Part shown: piece after piece, positions 5,349 through 23,252 of the stretch
Position numbering within the stretch: position 1 is the first letter of the stretch
Layout of the letters: the number at the start of each line of letters is the position of its first letter
Source: Methanobacterium sp.
GTDB taxonomy: Archaea > Methanobacteriota > Methanobacteria > Methanobacteriales > Methanobacteriaceae
DNA length: 23,252 bases
NCBI GenBank assembly: GCA_003166335.1
Contig: PMWA01000096.1
Span: 1 to 23,252, forward strand
Direction of reading: 5' to 3'
The notes under the pieces: generated by a model
Told to the model about the DNA's origin: nothing
What the model saw: only the letters and a program-made list of their open reading frames with translations
Database searches by the model: none
Translations under genes and position numbers: made by a program

Positions 5349-6002
5349 ATGACTGAAATGGAGAATACCCCGCAACCTAGGGAAAAAGTTTTATTTGATA
5401 CTAGACCCAGATTTACAATAACTTTGAGTTCAACTTTCATTAAATTCTTCGTTTTAATTGTATTATTATATTTATTTACTACTATATTAGCTTCTGTGGC
5501 GTCAGTGCAAAATTTCCTGGTTAACTATGTGAGATTGCCTCTAGTGGAGTCAGTCAGTTATTTAATAGTCATATTAATATTTGTACTTTTTTTGTGGATT
5601 CTTTGGGATATTATTTCATGGAGAGCAATCCATTACATGTTAACGACAGATAGAGTGTTGGTTGAAAGGGGAGTATTAAGGAAAAAAAAGGTTTACATGC
5701 ACTATGAGAAAATTCAGGATGTTGATATATCTCAGGGGATAATGGAAAGAATTTTCAAGGCGGGAGACATTGAAATATGGGGTGGCCATGACCGCACTCA
5801 GTTGATAATGGAACATGTGCCCAACCCTGCCCAGGTAGATAATACTATAAATCGACTGATCCAAGGCGATGATGTTGGATTCAGGAAATATAAAAGATCT
5901 GAAGATCGTAAATCTGTGATTAAGGATTATGACAAAAAATTTAAACCGTCTGAAGATCGTAAATCTGTGATTAAGGATTATGACAAAAAATTTAAACAAT
6001 AA
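5349..6002 (+). CDS. membrane-anchored bacterial-PH-domain (bPH_2/YdbS-like) protein
   Basis: Two hydrophobic helices, then YMLTTDRVLVERGVL...YEKIQDVDISQGIMERIFKAGDIEI, a pattern typical of bPH_2. GGAGA SD at 5336-5340. Confidence 0.8.
   Translation: MTEMENTPQPREKVLFDTRPRFTITLSSTFIKFFVLIVLLYLFTTILASVASVQNFLVNYVRLPLVESVSYLIVILIFVLFLWILWDIISWRAIHYMLTTDRVLVERGVLRKKKVYMHYEKIQDVDISQGIMERIFKAGDIEIWGGHDRTQLIMEHVPNPAQVDNTINRLIQGDDVGFRKYKRSEDRKSVIKDYDKKFKPSEDRKSVIKDYDKKFKQ
5898..5997 (+). repeat. perfect 49-bp tandem direct repeat, period 51 bp (in frame)
   Basis: TCTGAAGATCGTAAATCTGTGATTAAGGATTATGACAAAAAATTTAAAC at 5898-5946 and 5949-5997, separated by CG; encodes SEDRKSVIKDYDKKFK twice. Confidence 0.98.
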
Positions 6003-6017
6003 ATCAGAATTAAAATA

Positions 6018-6026
6018 TTTTTTTTT
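6018..6026 (+). terminator. oligo-T tract, probable archaeal terminator of the PH-domain gene
   Basis: T9 run starting 16 nt after the stop, in the short gap between convergent genes. Confidence 0.45.
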
Positions 6027-7977
6027 AGGGGATTAAATTGGATAAAGCTAGTGAAATAACACTAGCAAATGCTTCAATTAAATGTCTTTGTTCAGTGGTT
6101 ATGTTCACGTCTGAAGATAATGCCATAATACCCATAATTTTTTCCTGAGCTTTTAATGGAATATGGAACCATTTAGAAGATGATAATGTTTCAGTTCCGC
6201 ATCCTGCAGCCTGTCCATGTTGAAAAACCCAAGTTGCTACACCATTTTCATGCTTGTCAAAATCTCTTTTAGTTCCAAAACGTGAGACTACCTCCAAATT
6301 ATTATTATCATCATTAGGTAGAAGTATTAATACATCATAATTAAATGATTCTGATATATATCTGGTGCTTTTTTCTAAAATATCATCTAAATCATGTGAA
6401 GTTAACAGGTCTTTACTTAAATCATATAAAGATGATATAAAAGTTTCACGTTGCCTTGTATATTCAACCTGTTTCTTAACGGTATCTGCCAATAAACTGG
6501 TTATAATTCCAACTATAAATAACACTAGAAATGTAGGAATGAGACGTACATCACTAAAACTGAATGAAAAATATGGTTGAACAAAGAAGAAGTCAAAAGA
6601 AGCTACGGCCAGTAATGAGGTCAAGATACCTGCTTTCCTACCCGCTATTAAGCTGGTTATAACTACGGGTATAATGAATATCATAGGTATATTTACTGCT
6701 TCCACAAAGGGACTTATCAAAAAGCAGATGACCACAGTAATGCCAATGCTTAAAAAACTCAGACCATACGGTTTCCAATCATATTTAACCGTATTTAAAT
6801 CCATTCTTAAACTTTCTGGTGGTTCTCTCTTTTTATCCTCATTTTCCACTACAAGTATTTGAGCATCACTTTTACTGATAACCTGATTAATTACAGAACC
6901 TGCTATAAACTCTTGCAAGCGAGATCTCTGTGAATGACCCATTAAAATGAGTGTTATATTTTTGGAGGATGCAAATGATACTATCTCATCAGCTATAGAA
7001 CCAGTTAAACGAAAAACCTTACCTTCAAGTTCTTCTGTAAGTTCCAGATTTTTTTCAAGTTGAATAGATTCTTCTCGTTTCATTGTGAATCCGTAGGATG
7101 GTTCAACATACACTGCGAACCATTCTGAATTAAAACGATCAGCTAATCTATTTGCAATACGAATAAGCCTCATAGAAGAAATACTAGGACTGACACATAC
7201 CATGATGCGGTTGCTGGTTTCCCAAGGCCCTAGAATATTGTCTTTTTTCAGATAACGATCCATATCATAATCAACATGTATTGTGGCGTAACGTAGAGCA
7301 AGTTCTCTTAATGCTACTAGATTTCTTTTTTTAAAAAAACTTTTAATAGCTTGTTCAGCTTTCTCTGGGATGTAAACTTTTCCTTCATTCATCCTCTCGA
7401 TTAATTCATCTATAGGTATGTCAACAAGCTCTATTTTATCTGCAATTTCAATAATTCTATCTGGAACTGTTTCTTTAACTTCAACACCTGTTATTTGCTG
7501 AACAATGTCATTTATACTTTCAATATGCTGTATGTTTAATGTGGTGTAAACTTTTATACCGGCATTAATCAATTCCTCCACATCATGATACCGCTTCAAA
7601 TGCCTTGCACCAGGAACATTGTTATGTGCGAGTTCATCCACTAAAACAAATTCAGGTTTTCTTTTCAAAATCGCGTCTAAATCTAATTCTTCCAGTATAA
7701 TACCCTTATAATTTATTTCCTGTCGAGGAATAATTTCTAAATCTTTAAGAAGAATTTCTGTTTCTTTTCTACCATGAGTTTCAACTAACCCAACAACAAC
7801 ATCTTTTTTTCTATCTTGTAAAACACGAGCTTCACTGAGCATCCTATAAGTTTTACCAACACCGGCAACATATCCTAAAAAAATTTTTAAATAACCCTTA
7901 TAATCCTCTCCACCTTCTTCTCCTTTTATTAAACGCAGTAGTTCATCAGGGTCAGGTCTTTTAGGTTCGTCTGTCAT
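6025..7977 (-). CDS. kdpD: KdpD-family sensor lacking the histidine-kinase module (N-terminal KdpD domain + Usp + TM + GAF)
   Basis: RPDPDELL start, Walker A GYVAGVGKT, Walker B VLVDELAH, TTLNIQHIESIND, ALRELALR, Usp segment (IMVCVSPS...WFAVYV), TM helices including ASFDFFFVQPYFSF, and GAF segment AGCGTETL. It ends at ...EQRHLIEAFASVISLALSNLIP with no SHDLRTPL H-box and no N/G1/G2 boxes. Confidence 0.92.
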   Translation of the reverse strand: MTDEPKRPDPDELLRLIKGEEGGEDYKGYLKIFLGYVAGVGKTYRMLSEARVLQDRKKDVVVGLVETHGRKETEILLKDLEIIPRQEINYKGIILEELDLDAILKRKPEFVLVDELAHNNVPGARHLKRYHDVEELINAGIKVYTTLNIQHIESINDIVQQITGVEVKETVPDRIIEIADKIELVDIPIDELIERMNEGKVYIPEKAEQAIKSFFKKRNLVALRELALRYATIHVDYDMDRYLKKDNILGPWETSNRIMVCVSPSISSMRLIRIANRLADRFNSEWFAVYVEPSYGFTMKREESIQLEKNLELTEELEGKVFRLTGSIADEIVSFASSKNITLILMGHSQRSRLQEFIAGSVINQVISKSDAQILVVENEDKKREPPESLRMDLNTVKYDWKPYGLSFLSIGITVVICFLISPFVEAVNIPMIFIIPVVITSLIAGRKAGILTSLLAVASFDFFFVQPYFSFSFSDVRLIPTFLVLFIVGIITSLLADTVKKQVEYTRQRETFISSLYDLSKDLLTSHDLDDILEKSTRYISESFNYDVLILLPNDDNNNLEVVSRFGTKRDFDKHENGVATWVFQHGQAAGCGTETLSSSKWFHIPLKAQEKIMGIMALSSDVNITTEQRHLIEAFASVISLALSNLIP

Positions 7978-8004
7978 TTTTATAGTAGTTATTCATATTA
8001 TTTT

Positions 8005-8562
8005 TCATTTATTAAGTTTATCTAACGCTATATTAAGCTTTAACACGTTAACTATGGGATTTCCAAGTAATTGATATTCTTCATTTTCAACTACAATTTC
8101 CCTAACTTCTGATTGACTTATATTCCTAGCTTGCGCAATTCTTGGAATCTGAATCATGGCTGAACTCGCGTATATATCACTGTCCAATCCACTAGATGAT
8201 GCTTCAACTAAATCTGAAGGAACAGTAGCGTTTGCAGGTAAATAATTTTCTTGTATTATCTGCTGCATATTTGCGCTTACATTACCTATCTCAGCCTGAC
8301 TGTCGGGGCCTAAATTAGTGCCACCGGATGTGCTAGCATTATAATCTACATAAGAAGGTCTGCCTTGGAAATACTGAGGACTGGAAAAGTTCTGTCCAAT
8401 AAGTTGAGAACCTATAATCATGCCATTTTCCTTAATTAACTCTCCGTTAGCTTGGCTAGGGAATGCTACTTGTGCTATTCCCGTGATTACTAAGGGATAA
8501 ATTATACCAAATATTATGGTGAATACCGCAAATATTATAATGGCATTCTTGATTTCACTCAT
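8005..8562 (-). CDS. kdpC: K+-transporting ATPase subunit C
   Basis: N-terminal TM with [49 protein letters not shown] and [11 protein letters not shown]. Its start overlaps the kdpB stop (ATGA). Confidence 0.95.
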
Positions 8563-10610
8563 ATTTTAACCCCCAAACCTAAAAAGGTAATTACAATGTC
8601 AATGGCTTTTATACCAATAAATGGTATGATTAAACCTCCAACACCATATATCATAATGTTTAAACCCAAAAGCCTTGAAACTGAAGAAGTTGCACGGAAT
8701 TTAACACCACTCAGAGAGAGAGGAATCAAAAAAGGTATTACAATAGCGTTAAAGATAACCGCTGAGAGAACAGCACTAGCAGGACTACTGAGTTGCATAA
8801 TATTTAAAACACCAATTTGAGGATAAACACTTGCAAATATGGCTGGTACAATGGCAAAGTATTTGGCAACATCGTTCGCAACACTGAATGTGGTTAATGC
8901 TCCTCTAGTTATGAGTATTTCTTTACCAATTTCAACTATGTCCAATAATTTTGATGGTGATGAATCTAAATCAACCATATTAGCTGCTTCTCTTGCCGCC
9001 GCTGTACCGGCGCTCATGGCAACCGCTACATCGGCTTGAGCAAGTGCTGGAGCATCATTAGTTCCATCCCCGATCATAGCTACTAGATATTGTTGATCAC
9101 CTGTTTGATAGTCGCGTATCATCTGTAACTTTGTTTCAGGCTTAGCTTCAGCACTGAAATCATCAACACCTGCTTCTGCAGCTATAGATGCGGCTGTAAG
9201 TGGATTATCACCAGTTATCATAATGGATTTAATACCCATATGTCTCAACTGGAGTAATCTTTTCTTAATACCTTGTTTTACAATATCTTTTAATCTTATA
9301 ACTCCTAATACTTGAGTATTAGAAGCAACAACTAGGGGTGTATCTCCTTTAACTGCTATTTCATCGACAATATTCTTTATTTCTGCAGGTACACTTCCAC
9401 CGTTATTTGTTACGAATTTTTCTATGGCATTGGTTGATCCTTTCCTAATTTTTTTTAAGCCAGCATCAACTCCACTCATACATGTTTCCGGTGTGAATGG
9501 AACAAATACGGATTCTTTCGAAGGATGTATATCTTTTCCCTGCACTTTCAACTCTTTTTTCCCTAGTTTAACTATGCTACGCCCTTCAGGGGTTTCATCG
9601 GCTAAGGATGACATTAAGGAAGCTTCTATCAACTCTTTTGCATCTACTCCTTCTGCGGGAATGAATTCTGTAGCCATCCTATTTCCTAAGGTGATAGTAC
9701 CGGTTTTATCCAGTAAAACTACACTAACATCCCCTGCTGCTTCTACAGCCCTTCCACTTAAAGCTATGACGTTGTGTTGTAATAATCGGTCCATACCTGC
9801 AATACCAATGGCAGGTAGAAGCGCTCCGATGGTGGTGGGCATAAGACATACTAGAAGAGCTATTAAAATAGCTATAGGAATGGTTATTCCCATGTAATCT
9901 GAAAATGCTGATAAAGTGATGACCACGGTTAGGAATATCACAGTTAAACCAAGAAGCAGTATTTCAAGAGCTCTTTCATTGGGTGTCTTCTGTCTTTTGG
10001 CGCTTTCAACCATACTTATCATGTTGTCAAGGAATGTTTCACCGGGATTTACACTTATCCTTACTTTTATTGTTCCTGAAAGTAATTTTGTACCACCAGT
10101 CACTCCACTTTTATCTCCACCTGATTCTCTTATGACTGGGGCTGACTCGCCTGTGATGGCTGATTCATCAACCAGTGCTGTTCCTTCTATTATATCCCCA
10201 TCACTGGGTATGATTTCATTTTCTTTAATTAGAACACAATCATTTCTTTGGAGGGTAAGGGCAGAGACGTTTTCTATGCTTCCATCCTTAAGAATCTTAT
10301 TGGCAGGTGCTTCTGCTCTAGTACGTTTAAGCGATTCTGCACGGGCTTTACCCTGACTTTCAGCTATAGCCTCCGCGAAATTAGCGAATAAAACTGTGAA
10401 CCATAACCATATTGAAATTTGTAAGTCAAATATAAAGCTTACACCCGTATAAATGTTAAAGATAGTGAGTATAGTTGTTATTAAAGCACCTATTTCTACT
10501 ATGAACATTACAGGATTTCTGATGAGCGTTATCGGGTTTAATCTGATGATTGACCCTTTTAATGAATTTAATATAATCTTCCTTTGAAATATGCTAGTTT
10601 CGATTTTCAT
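8559..10610 (-). CDS. kdpB: K+-transporting P-type ATPase subunit B
   Basis: TGES (Ser156), PTTIG, DKTGT phosphorylation site (Asp301), [17 protein letters not shown] and ANDVAKYF are all intact. SD AGGAGGTGA. Confidence 0.98.
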
Positions 10611-10630: not shown

Positions 10631-12334
10631 CTATGTTATATGTCCTCCATACAGGAATAGATGATCCAGGATGGGTCCGAGAGTGAATACTGGGAAAAAT
10701 GTGAGTGCACCTAGTAGAATCACTACGGCTACAACTATAATTATGAATAACGGACCGGTAGTGGGGAATGAAGCAGAAGTTATTGGAACCTTTCCTTTCT
10801 GTGCTAACAAACCAGCTAATGCAATTGCAGGTATTATAGTAGCAAATCTACCTACAAGCATAGCTAATCCACCTGTTAAGTTATAAAATAACGTATTAGC
10901 GCTTAATCCTGCGAATGCTGAACCATTATTTCCAATCGTGGATAAGTAGGCATATAAAATTTCTGAAAGACCATGAGCTGAGGGGTTAGCCAAACTGGAT
11001 AGTCCGGCAGGCGTGGTGATGGCGATGGCAGCAAGAGTCAATATTGCCACGTGAGGTAATACGATAGGTATAACCGATAATATCATCTCAGGAGGGCCTA
11101 ATTTCTTCCCGAGGAATTCTGGTGTTCTCCCTATCATGAGTCCAGCTATGAACATTGATAAAATAACGTAGAACAACATGCCAATCAACCCCACGCCAAG
11201 ACCACCATATATGACTTCACCCGTGCACATGTTGAACATGTACACTAGTCCGGTTAGGGGCATTACACTATCATGCATGGAGTTTACTCCTCCGTTTGAC
11301 ACGTCCGTTGTGGCAACTCCCCATAGTACCGATTGGGTAACACCGAATCTTACTTCTTTACCTTCTAAATTACCTCCAGTTACGCCCATTTTTTCTAGTA
11401 TAGGGTTGGGTTGGCTTTCGGTGTATAGGGCTATTCCCAGTCCTAATCCGAATAATATAGTCATAACGGAGAATATGGCTAATCCTTGTTTAAAGTTTTT
11501 AATGAGGTAACCGAATGTAAATACTAGGGATATAGGTATTAATAAAATGGCTAAGATTTCTAAAATGTCAGTTATAGTGTTAGGATTTTCGAAGGGGTGC
11601 GCGGAGTTTGCATTGAAGAATCCTCCCCCATTGGATCCGATCATTTTTATAGCTTCTTGGGATGCGACGGGTCCAACCGCTATAGTTTGATTAACTCCTT
11701 CCAGAGTATGCGCCGTAATATACGGATTGAATGTTTGCACCACGCCTTGTGAGGCCAGTACTATGGCTAGTATCACGGCGATTGGTAGTAATACGTATAA
11801 TAGGGCTCGTGTGAGGTCTACCCAGAAGTTCCCGATTTTGTCTGTGTTTTTTCTGGTGAATCCTCTAATTAGAACAAGTAATGCTGCGATGCCTATTGCT
11901 GCTGATAAAAAGTTTTGCACGGCTAGACCTGTCATTTGAGTGAGGTAGCTCATAGTGGTTTCGCCAGCATAACCTTGCCAGTTAGTGTTGGTGGCGAATG
12001 ATATGGCGGTGTTGAGTGCTGAATCCCAACTTACACCAGGAAGTCCTTCAGGATTGAGCGGTAAAAATCCTTGTAATAGTTGTAATGCAAAAAGAAATAT
12101 TATACCAATGATATTTAGCATTATCAATGCGTAAGCGTATTGCTTCCAATTCATTTCCTTAGTTTCATCAGTACCTATTAAACGGTACATGAACCGTTCT
12201 ACTGGCTGCATTAAGGGAGTCATGAATGTTCTCTGCCCAGTGAACACTCGAGACATGTATTTGCCTAGTGGTATTGCAAGTGCTACGACGATTATGAAAA
12301 GTATTAGAATGAAAATTATATCTAGGATTCCCAA
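10631..12334 (-). CDS. kdpA: K+-transporting ATPase subunit A
   Basis: Selectivity-filter segments TNTNWQ, GSNGGGFF, VSNGGVN and GNNGSAF, plus GLMIGRTPEFLGKK. TTG start after GGGGGGAG. Confidence 0.98.
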   Translation of the reverse strand: MGILDIIFILILFIIVVALAIPLGKYMSRVFTGQRTFMTPLMQPVERFMYRLIGTDETKEMNWKQYAYALIMLNIIGIIFLFALQLLQGFLPLNPEGLPGVSWDSALNTAISFATNTNWQGYAGETTMSYLTQMTGLAVQNFLSAAIGIAALLVLIRGFTRKNTDKIGNFWVDLTRALLYVLLPIAVILAIVLASQGVVQTFNPYITAHTLEGVNQTIAVGPVASQEAIKMIGSNGGGFFNANSAHPFENPNTITDILEILAILLIPISLVFTFGYLIKNFKQGLAIFSVMTILFGLGLGIALYTESQPNPILEKMGVTGGNLEGKEVRFGVTQSVLWGVATTDVSNGGVNSMHDSVMPLTGLVYMFNMCTGEVIYGGLGVGLIGMLFYVILSMFIAGLMIGRTPEFLGKKLGPPEMILSVIPIVLPHVAILTLAAIAITTPAGLSSLANPSAHGLSEILYAYLSTIGNNGSAFAGLSANTLFYNLTGGLAMLVGRFATIIPAIALAGLLAQKGKVPITSASFPTTGPLFIIIVVAVVILLGALTFFPVFTLGPILDHLFLYGGHIT

Positions 12335-12465
12335 ATTAAACTCCCCCCAAAAGAGTTCATATATCGTTTCAGAATTATTTTCTCATATGATTTTTTAAAG
12401 CTAGATAATATATTAATATTAATAAAGAGTTTTTTTCCAGTTAAGTTTTCATTTTTATATTCCAC
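12322..12465 (-). CDS. putative 47-aa leader/uORF at the position normally held by kdpF
   Basis: Below the ORF-track cutoff. SD AGGAGGT, 7-nt spacer, then GTG at 12465. Reads MEYKNENLTGKKLFININILSSFKKSYEKIILKRYMNSFGGSLIWES, with the TAG stop (12324-12322) inside the first codons of kdpA. Basic and not KdpF-like. Confidence 0.45.
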   Translation of the reverse strand: MEYKNENLTGKKLFININILSSFKKSYEKIILKRYMNSFGGSLIWES

Positions 12466-12470
12466 TTTTT

Positions 12471-12527
12471 TTACCTCCTAAAGAAATTTATCCTCCAAGA
12501 GTGCATTTTTTATGTAGGGGGAGGTAA
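12471..12527. promoter_or_regulatory. inverted repeat TTACCTCC/GGAGGTAA: possible SD-sequestering hairpin or operator in the kdp leader
   Basis: TTACCTCC at 12471-12478 and GGAGGTAA at 12520-12527 are exact complements, and one arm is the uORF SD. Confidence 0.45.
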
Positions 12528-12808
12528 TTCAAAATTTAAAAACTTTCACTGATCTTTTTTATAGCTTCATTTTAGCATGAAATATGTTCAAACTGTTATT
12601 ATTATTCTTTCTTTTTTCCACCCATAATATTTGGAGTAAATGATTCATAACTATTATAGAATAGGTGAATGAATCTTTTAATAACAGTATTATATGAAAA
12701 GGAAGCTTTTTATATAATTTATAATGATTATACATGTTTAAATACATTATAGTGTTGTTTATATCACTTTCCCATAATTTTTTAGCTTGTAAAGGTAATG
12801 CAATACTA

Positions 12809-12843
12809 TTATATAAAGATTACGCCGGCAAAGGCCGGAACAG
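12809..12843. promoter_or_regulatory. TATA-like box with adjacent GC-rich repeat (candidate kdp promoter/operator)
   Basis: TTATATAAAG (minus strand CTTTATATAA) at 12809-12818, next to GCCGGCAAAG GCCGGAACAG (12824-12843) in otherwise very AT-rich DNA. Confidence 0.35.
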
Positions 12844-13484
12844 ATTTATTTATTCCTTAATTTTGCTTCGTTTTTCTTTTATTCGGAATATTCTTCCAAC
12901 AAAATAGTATTAATATTTAAAGTGATGCTAAATTTAGCAGATTAAAGGAATAATCACATTTTTTTAAAGTTATTATTTTTTTTAAGAACAATAGTATTAT
13001 TTAATATGGACTTATGTGGTTTAGTTTAAATTATAAACTCAGTAGATTACCCTCTTAATCATTAGAGAACGATATTTAAATGATGATATTTAAAGAAAAT
13101 GGGATCATCTAACTGTGTTTAACTATTATTAAAAATTATCACCCCAATAGGATAGTTCAAAATAAAAAAAACTTTGAAATTAAATTCTTATTATTAAATC
13201 AAAATAAAGTTTAATTTTTGGATAATATTGCTTTAAACTACTCTAATGGGCTAAATATTTAGAATTTACATTTTGAATATTTAAATTTTATAATAATCTA
13301 ATTTAATTAATAAATCCTTTAATTTAAATATATATTAGATAAAAAATAATTATAGCTATAAAGTTAGTAATAAAACTATTTTATTAATAGTAATTTTATA
13401 ATTTAACTGAGATTTTTATTTTCAAAGTTTGCATTTAATTTCAGTTAATTTAATATTATAATTTAAAAAGAGTTTCAGGTTAAC

Positions 13485-22709: not shown

Positions 22710-23252
22710 TTATTCTGTGAATTTTTCAAGAACTTTTTTAGTAGAATCTCTTTTACTCAGAATTGATATTTTATCCCCATATTTTAATACCATTTCAGGT
22801 TTGCATATAGTAATTTTATCGTCATTATTCTCGCAGTATCCACATATGATGTAATCGTCGGTAGGACTCAATTCATTAATGGTTTTACCTATAATATCAT
22901 CGTTTTTTACTTCTATCTCTAATATTTCAGCTTGCCCTTTATCCACCACGTATAAATCGGCAACTTGTGGTTTTAAAATAAGTTTCTCCAGATAACCGGC
23001 TTCAGTGGTTTCTGGGCGTATTATTTCCACCATGGCACTGTCTTGAAAAACTTTTTCATGCTGAGGATCATTCACCCTGGCAATTATTTTATCAGGTTTA
23101 TATTCTTTAGCTAAAAGAGCTGCCATCAAATTAGCATTATCATCACCCGTAGCAGCTACAAAAACATCGGCATCCTCTATCTGAGCATCCTCAAGGATTT
23201 TATAATCAGTTCCATTACCCCAGATCACCACAGTATCCAATTCTTGCGCAAC
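22710..23252 (-). CDS. trkA: TrkA-family K+ uptake regulatory subunit (RCK_N + RCK_C), 5' end outside the window
   Basis: VIWGNGTD..LEDAQIEDADVFVAATGDDNANL, IIARVND, and a C-terminal RCK_C (IIGKTINEL...LKYGDKI). The frame stays open to the window edge (VAQELDT...). Confidence 0.88.
   Translation of the reverse strand, partial: VAQELDTVVIWGNGTDYKILEDAQIEDADVFVAATGDDNANLMAALLAKEYKPDKIIARVNDPQHEKVFQDSAMVEIIRPETTEAGYLEKLILKPQVADLYVVDKGQAEILEIEVKNDDIIGKTINELSPTDDYIICGYCENNDDKITICKPEMVLKYGDKISILSKRDSTKKVLEKFTE

Follow-up and report, generated by a model that had tools for sequence, protein, structure and literature searches.

A KdpD ending after its GAF domain as probable stand-alone serine kinase of the Kdp pump in a Methanobacterium

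Background

The N-terminal domain of Escherichia coli KdpD is able by itself to phosphorylate serine S162 of KdpB, the P-type ATPase of the Kdp potassium pump (Silberberg et al. 2024, Nat Commun 15:3223, PMC11018627). According to the relevant passages of that paper, a KdpD delta663-894 construct still inhibits and phosphorylates KdpB in vivo, the serine-kinase activity of the full-length protein rises with K+ in styrene-maleic acid lipid particles (SMALPs), and the residues essential for this activity are G36/K37/T38 of Walker A, W39/R190, D109 and E110; how K+ controls the serine kinase is named there as an open question. Here, the kdp operon of a Methanobacterium sp. (assembly GCA_003166335.1) is described, which lies on a contig of 23,252 nucleotides (nt; PMWA01000096.1) analysed over its whole length and referred to as the window. 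Its KdpD is intact except that the histidine-kinase module is missing, and it very probably acts as a stand-alone, membrane-anchored atypical serine kinase which would phosphorylate KdpB Ser156 and so shut KdpABC off when K+ is plentiful.

Proteins of this kind have already been grouped as the 'Truncated DHpCA domain' class of KdpD, recorded in 61 of 5495 species and in 17 of 49 archaea (PMC11018627). The authors consider the role of the class to be apparently post-translational only, the histidine kinase having been lost in Campylobacterota and Archaea, and among the members tabulated are M. lacus F0TA31, M. paludis F6D4T4 and a Methanobacterium sp., listed with 651 amino acids (aa), no KdpE and no cyclase. 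The proteins reported there as assayed come from E. coli and Deinococcus only, and the class is assigned from sequence. A shorter form, the Deinococcus KdpD, is stimulated by cyclic diadenosine monophosphate (c-di-AMP) according to the same source.

Results

Architecture of the truncated KdpD

Four Pfam domains account for the window KdpD, namely KdpD (residues 27-232), Usp (256-377), DUF4118, which is the transmembrane (TM) part (404-510), and GAF_3 (529-647); the last model is matched whole (1-129/129) and no domain follows it. HisKA and HATPase_c gave no match in the 650 aa (Pfam, E<=0.1). The NCBIfam model of full-length KdpD, NF007793, is covered over positions 1-645 of 895 only, below its cut-off, while NF038185 (KdpD/Usp non-kinase) scores 375 bits against a cut-off of 550. 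Global alignment with E. coli KdpD, whose sequence was taken from an annotated record, stops at E. coli residue 647, before H673, and places G36/K37/T38, W39, D109, E110 and R190 of E. coli at G41/K42/T43, Y44, D114, E115 and R195. In KdpB, E161/S162/D307 of E. coli correspond to E155/S156/D301. The preliminary description of this DNA, made from its letters alone, had proposed a KdpD-Usp-TM-GAF protein with neither H-box nor HATPase and had equated Ser156 and Asp301 with S162 and D307; the domain scan and the KdpB alignment uphold both points, and the positions that it gave for Walker A, Walker B, Ser156, Asp301 and the 22-bp gap after kdpD were exact on recheck.

With Walker A and B, Usp, TM and GAF present and DHp/CA and the catalytic histidine absent, the protein belongs to the 'Truncated DHpCA domain' class, whereas a canonical KdpDE two-component system, with an H673-bearing transmitter and a cognate KdpE, is not encoded. 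Domain order and length, both Walker motifs and the lack of histidine kinase, KdpE and cyclase are shared with the class, and nothing architectural differs, only the species; the protein named M. lacus (P0090; G, L, P and C numbers are our handles for genomes, loci, proteins and contigs) is 65% identical. The window KdpD adds one more protein to a class that was described in 2024, orthologues from the same family included, and the reading given here is the authors' own; since the class is already published, the finding itself will not surprise a specialist.

Compared with E. coli, residues 1-647 align throughout, the serine-kinase residues are kept and the order is kdpA-B-C-D, but DHp/CA, kdpE and a recognisable kdpF are absent and a Tyr stands in place of Trp39. 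The E. coli delta663-894 construct has nearly the architecture of the window KdpD, which ends about 15 residues earlier. The short KdpD/Usp of Deinococcus geothermalis (NF038185) likewise joins a serine-kinase domain to Usp without a histidine kinase; the window protein, in contrast, keeps TM and GAF, and its genome has no diadenylate cyclase. Like the window, Halobacterium salinarum has a Kdp system with no KdpE, the TGES serine kept and a trkA-family gene nearby; unlike the window, its operon has no KdpD, contains kdpF and a stand-alone Usp gene (KdpQ), and carries Glu rather than Ala after the serine.

A search of PDB sequences with the window KdpD returned isolated KdpD domains only, with 2ksf as the TM match and 4qpr as the GAF match. 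The E. coli TM-loop positions, presumably P466, T469, L470 and V472, align to P468, S471, F472 and F474 of the window, and P468 is invariant across 68 aligned rows.

Conservation, selection and descent

The truncation is not strain-specific. By the names of its homologues the window belongs to the Methanobacteriaceae. A full-length match was found in 20 of 150 family genomes, and all 20 open reading frames (ORFs), of 649-664 aa, stop 0-14 aa past the GAF alignment; in four further genomes (G131, G144, G072, G089) kdpD is broken, partial or cut by a contig end. The set of the 120 best homologues, which includes about 20 near-copies of the window KdpD, has 115 proteins of 640-690 aa; the remaining five comprise four shorter ones (516-605 aa) and a PAS fusion, and the KdpD-type H-box occurs in none of the 120. 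A single stop boundary holds among proteins down to 59% identity, and the serine-kinase residues are identical in all 24 family sequences. A strain-specific deletion or frameshift is ruled out by the recurrence of the same truncation in these relatives.

Medians of the ratio of nonsynonymous to synonymous substitution rates (dN/dS, Nei-Gojobori, 40 non-independent pairs among 24 sequences) are 0.088 for the kinase domain, 0.091 for Usp, 0.076 for TM and 0.144 for GAF, with a maximum of 0.304. All four domains are under purifying selection, with medians of about 0.1 in each, in line with the earlier view that the shortened protein had been retained. The co-occurrence of kdpB and kdpD is near-perfect in the family: each is present in 25 of 151 genomes, and both in 24. 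Frameshifted, split or fragmentary copies of kdpD or kdpB were noted in G131, G144, G044, G130, G018 and L202, where decay and assembly error would look alike.

Descent was explored with a quick tree of 69 rows, scored by the Shimodaira-Hasegawa-like approximate likelihood ratio test (SH-aLRT) with no bootstrap, flagged for compositional bias and not resolving a donor; the Methanoregula, Methanosarcina and Methanoculleus forms tabulated in PMC11018627 lie outside it. The 24 methanogen-clade KdpDs form one group (SH-aLRT 100) on a long branch, and within it stand four Methanomethylovorans/Methanolobus-type proteins (P0064, P0070, P0079, P0087), a placement which, in a tree of unrooted type, suggests transfer of kdp between methanogen orders. 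Four acidobacterial proteins stopping at the same boundary form a separate group amid full-length KdpDs, so that the cut after GAF appears to have happened more than once. Since the truncation also occurs in bacteria, archaeal (TBP/TFB) promoters, to which the loss of the transcriptional arm had been attributed in the preliminary description, are not needed to explain it.

Acidobacteriota KdpDs ending at this GAF boundary are found in L051, L053, L056, L085 and L095, and in L051 and L053 the locus holds kdpE and a HAMP-PAS histidine kinase. In P0061, a methanogen-type KdpD of 792 aa, GAF is followed by a PAS domain and not by a kinase; the protein may be a fusion with a PAS-kinase gene, partial or misassembled.

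Search for a kinase half, KdpE and cyclase in the genome

The genome (G000; 2.49 Mb in 126 contigs, 99.4% complete) was searched, except for 1779 bases, for missing parts of the system with domain families, each of which gave matches in known control genomes. It holds a single KdpD domain and a single DUF4118, and neither Trans_reg_C (PF00486) nor the diadenylate cyclase (DAC) domain has a match in it. Across the family, Trans_reg_C is present in 3 of 151 genomes, all of one genus with kdpB in 0/13, and DAC in 1 of 151. With E. coli KdpE as a tblastn query, the window contig was blank and only three weak receiver-region matches appeared elsewhere in the genome; this agrees with the earlier statement that the window has no response regulator, although an ORF-by-ORF receiver-domain scan was not part of the check.

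A profile built from 44 bacterial KdpD C-termini recovered 16 genome ORFs, at 142 bits or below against 309 and 316 for two true KdpDs, and most of them are of the HDLQEPLRM H-box type. Two-component kinases are present in the genome, but none is KdpD-type: neither a KdpD-type kinase half nor a second TM-GAF-DHpCA chain was found with the C-terminus profile and the DUF4118 and KdpD searches. The kdpE or split kinase whose presence elsewhere would have told against a lost transcriptional arm was looked for by all of these routes and not found.

KdpB as the predicted substrate

TGES is the signature motif of P-type ATPases, its serine being the most variable position (PMC7535926, in the part concerned with the motif). 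In all 57 aligned KdpBs whose locus or genome bears KdpD, drawn from 68 intact hits by leaving out chiefly duplicates and near-duplicates, this serine is followed by Ala, whereas the three KdpD-less pumps (G167, G195 and Halobacterium) have Thr, Ile and Glu there. Ala is also found in 119 of 120 further KdpB homologues of undefined KdpD status, the exception being the query's own; among the matches listed, the only further KdpD-less archaeal KdpBs on plasmids were Halobacterium copies. Ala157 is a possible recognition position for the kinase.

The complex of KdpD 22-240 with KdpB 95-215 was predicted in the presence of ATP and Mg. It scored 0.56 against 0.00 for the best control, with runs of 0.29/0.64/0.56, contact agreement of at least 57% and a partner predicted local distance difference test (pLDDT) value of at least 76. 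The mark for the complex score was reached by 116 of 157 solved pairs and 2 of 215 mismatched pairs, and at scores of 0.60 or below by only 18 of the 157 solved pairs and both mismatches; the prediction gives weak support to a KdpD-KdpB pairing.

A candidate promoter motif upstream of kdpA

Of 23 kdpA upstream regions, 16 have an inverted repeat, CGG-spacer-CC(G/T), immediately before the TATA box, compared with 16 of 1280 windows of own-genome background; the pattern was written by eye from these promoters, and the genomes compared are related. Tried on new loci, it was present in three of five operons with kdpD, those three belonging to a genus sampled before, and in neither of two KdpD-less ones (700 nt examined). 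The form CCGG-N6-CCGG-N7-TTTATA is found in the window (Table 1) and at G000:C25:15250-15276 (+), and recurs in G063 and G152. In its strict form the motif has two intergenic matches in the own genome, the kdp promoter and that of a stand-alone trkA 10 kb away across a contig break. Over 19 genomes of the genus there were 35 strict matches versus 9 for a reversed control, and of 30 matches fetched 12 were intergenic: eight before kdpA, three before stand-alone trkA and one at a contig end.

The CCGG-spacer-CCG motif is a candidate archaeal operator and a candidate site of a K+ regulon. Against the regulon stand the position of the motif's right half, which presumably is where a transcription factor B recognition element (BRE) would be, and a local origin that the kdp and trkA promoters could share. 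A family-wide trkA regulon is not supported, with a match in only 1 of 29 trkA loci, and a regulator gene conserved beside kdp was seen in none of five long loci inspected. The fixed-spacer patterns CGGAA-N7-TTCC and CGG.A-N14-18-TTCCG, run over the genome, fell mostly inside ORFs and were uninformative.

RNA data consist of contigs of four runs, informative on neither strand, start nor level. They cover the kdp operon including kdpD, and kdpC and kdpD are bridged in three of the four runs as listed. Over 12866-13447 three runs have an RNA depth of 0 and the remaining one a depth below 1.5, and contigs of two studies end at 12773, just downstream of the TATA box (12810-12817), which is a weak hint. 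A kdpABCD transcript preceded by some 450 nt of leader would give such a pattern.

From these observations a wider scheme may be drawn, which is offered tentatively and is rather doubtful as a whole: in Methanobacteriaceae both arms of Kdp control would have been built anew with neither a two-component system nor c-di-AMP, the pump being shut by a membrane serine kinase that senses K+, while an archaeal transcription factor bound at the CCGG-spacer-CCG repeat replaces KdpE and co-regulates kdp and stand-alone trkA, possibly a structured 5' leader, about 450 nt long, adding one more layer of control. If true, it would answer the question, raised in PMC11018627, of how organisms lacking the histidine kinase express kdp. 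Neither the Ala after the TGES serine nor the promoter motif has a print description in the literature searched, which was mostly open and judged from listings; no paper on a CCGG-spacer-CCG site was found there, most subscription journals and bioRxiv supplements being outside its scope. Both offer cheap and specific predictions.

Several leader and promoter elements were noted besides. In the own genus (window 12473-12527 (-), L035, L037, L114-L117) a conserved leader element is made up of CCTCC, of TGC(A/G)CTCTTGGAGGA as its core and of the AGGAGGT of the upstream ORF; it has two alternative predicted folds, both of which bury the ribosome site. A conserved candidate nested-stem leader (TTTCC/GGAAA, GAAGTC/GRCTTC, GTTC/GAAC) occurs in L125-L132, L198-L200 and L202, mostly of genus g26, about 130-220 nt upstream of kdpA where placed and ahead of a short acidic upstream ORF; its fold energies are modest (-10 to -14 kcal/mol). 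Rfam gave only chance-level matches to known riboswitches in the window upstream region and nine relatives' loci. A second palindrome, (A/G)TAAC-N3-GTTA(T/C), precedes 4 of 23 kdp operons and 7 of 14 trkH-linked trkA loci versus 4 of 1321 own-genome windows (kdp L120-L122, L128, L200; trkA-trkH L139-L142, L147, L150, L163), and CGATC(A/T)TTA is found just after the TATA box in 9 of 14 trkH-linked trkA loci.

Discussion

Proposed role of the truncated KdpD

The architecture, catalytic residues, absences, conservation, selection and co-occurrence observed here argue strongly for a stand-alone serine kinase acting on KdpB Ser156, with phosphotransfer, inhibition and K+ control carried over from E. 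coli. At low K+ the kinase would be quiet and the pump running; at high K+ the TM/GAF module would activate the N-terminal kinase, and phosphorylation of KdpB Ser156 would then stall the pump. The K+ input would come from TM and GAF, which among the parts still present in KdpD are the only ones known to sense K+, rather than from c-di-AMP, and kdp would be transcribed either constitutively or under a control other than KdpE. The proposal in the preliminary description, of a membrane sensor and post-translational off-switch kept after the KdpE arm had gone, is supported at the level of sequence, and the same reading is already in print in the passages of PMC11018627 on this class. Having K+-sensing domains with neither histidine kinase nor c-di-AMP, the window KdpD offers a test case which isolates K+ control of the serine kinase. 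If true, it would give a defined kinase-substrate pair controlling an archaeal transporter.

Several observations weigh against this role. The TGES serine, whose retention the preliminary description had counted in favour, is also present in the KdpD-less pumps of Halobacterium, G167 and G195 and in another P-type ATPase of the own genome; as it is kept without KdpD, the serine alone is weak evidence. Behind the Ala contrast stand no more than three KdpD-less pumps, each of them more divergent (61-67% or 48% identity), and drift could account for it. The predicted complex scores in the weak band, with 0.29 in one of three runs, and no interface is given. Two same-class genomes (G167, G195) and Halobacterium run Kdp without KdpD, and the tables of PMC11018627, in whose Supplementary Data 142 species are classed as 'No KdpD', list 31 of 49 archaea without it; with such pumps in archaea, the switch is dispensable there. 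K+ control of the serine kinase is known, according to the same paper, only for full-length E. coli KdpD, and in the literature searched no report of archaeal KdpD activity or of a KdpB phosphosite was found. Finally, split or broken copies of kdpD are seen in G131, in G144 and at the G221 locus.

These broken copies, together with a patchy distribution (25 of 151 genomes), are what one would expect if kdpD were a functionless relic, in decay, of a kdpDE gained by horizontal transfer, yet the dN/dS of about 0.1 in every domain and the unchanged catalytic residues largely refute this, and the single stop boundary and the RNA cover of kdpD are further points against; this explanation is scarcely credible. 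Control of the same KdpB serine kinase through Usp by a nucleotide (c-di-AMP or another), as in the Deinococcus short KdpD, instead of by K+ at TM/GAF, is hardly more probable. Usp is under purifying selection, and C261, S263, S265 and Y290 of the window fill four of the five positions of (A/G/C)XSXSX2N(Y/F), given as the c-di-AMP-binding Usp motif in PMC8214093. The Asn of the motif, however, is absent in all 116 parsed of 120 homologues, a Ser replacing it in the window, and the second Ser is kept in 40 of the parsed homologues; the DAC domain is missing from the genome and nearly so from the family, and no cyclase is given in the three Methanobacterium rows of PMC11018627. The missing cyclase and the incomplete motif make c-di-AMP control unlikely.

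Somewhat more weight, though still little, can be given to the idea that the truncated KdpD is also or mainly a K+ sensor for transcription, signalling in trans to an unrelated archaeal histidine kinase or to a transcription factor at the TATA-side motif. Constraint on TM and GAF equals that on the kinase domain, but serine-kinase control already accounts for this. The promoter motif is frequent before kdpD-bearing operons and absent from the KdpD-less ones, a contrast which, at 0/2, is tiny and drawn from two divergent operons. The genome has at least 13 other histidine-kinase ORFs, the acidobacterial L051 and L053 pair the same truncation with kdpE and a HAMP-PAS histidine kinase, and P0061 has a PAS fused after GAF; on the other side, the five long loci show no conserved regulator or kinase gene next to kdp, and the genome holds no KdpE-type domain. 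The serine kinase remains by far the most probable function of the window KdpD.

Features of the window

The genes kdpA-kdpB-kdpC-kdpD follow one another in this order, all on the minus strand, and 22 bp (6003-6024) separate kdpD from a convergent gene. The coordinates are collected in Table 1.

Table 1. Features of the kdp region and of trkA in the window, with the basis of each assignment
Feature	Position	Strand	Details
kdpD	6025..7977	-	650 aa; ORF list, Pfam, NCBIfam, alignment to E. coli KdpD
Walker B VLVDELAH	7624..7647	-	KdpD aa 111-118; D114/E115 = E. coli D109/E110
Walker A GYVAGVGKT	7849..7875	-	KdpD aa 35-43: G35...G41-K42-T43, then Y44 (= E. coli W39)
kdpC	8005..8562	-	185 aa; ORF and Pfam/NCBIfam
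kdpB, P-type ATPase	8559..10610	-	683 aa; E155/S156/A157 in TGES loop, D301 catalytic
KdpB Asp301 codon (= E. coli D307)	9708..9710	-	alignment
KdpB residue 157 codon (Ala)	10140-10142	-	directly after TGES serine
KdpB Ser156 codon, predicted inhibitory phosphosite (= E. coli S162)	10143..10145	-	alignment; phosphorylation predicted from the relevant parts of PMC11018627 and PMC7535926
kdpA	10631..12334	-	567 aa; ORF and Pfam/NCBIfam
short upstream ORF, 47 aa, overlapping the kdpA start	12322..12465	-	GTG start, AGGAGGT ribosome site before it
candidate kdp promoter: CCGG-N6-CCGG inverted repeat directly upstream of TTTATATA box	12810..12838	-	candidate operator or unusual BRE region
stand-alone trkA (RCK), 3' part	22710..23240	-	5' end and promoter on contig C25

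No tblastn match to E. coli KdpF, a short and insensitive query, was obtained, and no small hydrophobic ORF lies in the 450 nt upstream in the window. The product of the 47-aa upstream ORF is hydrophilic and not KdpF-like, and relatives differ in its length and sequence. The end of contig C25 and the end of the window contig have 23 nt in common, and trkA spans the break. At its 3' end (5889-6000, +) the convergent bPH_2 gene contains a tandem duplication, with the result that SEDRKSVIKDYDKKFK occurs twice.

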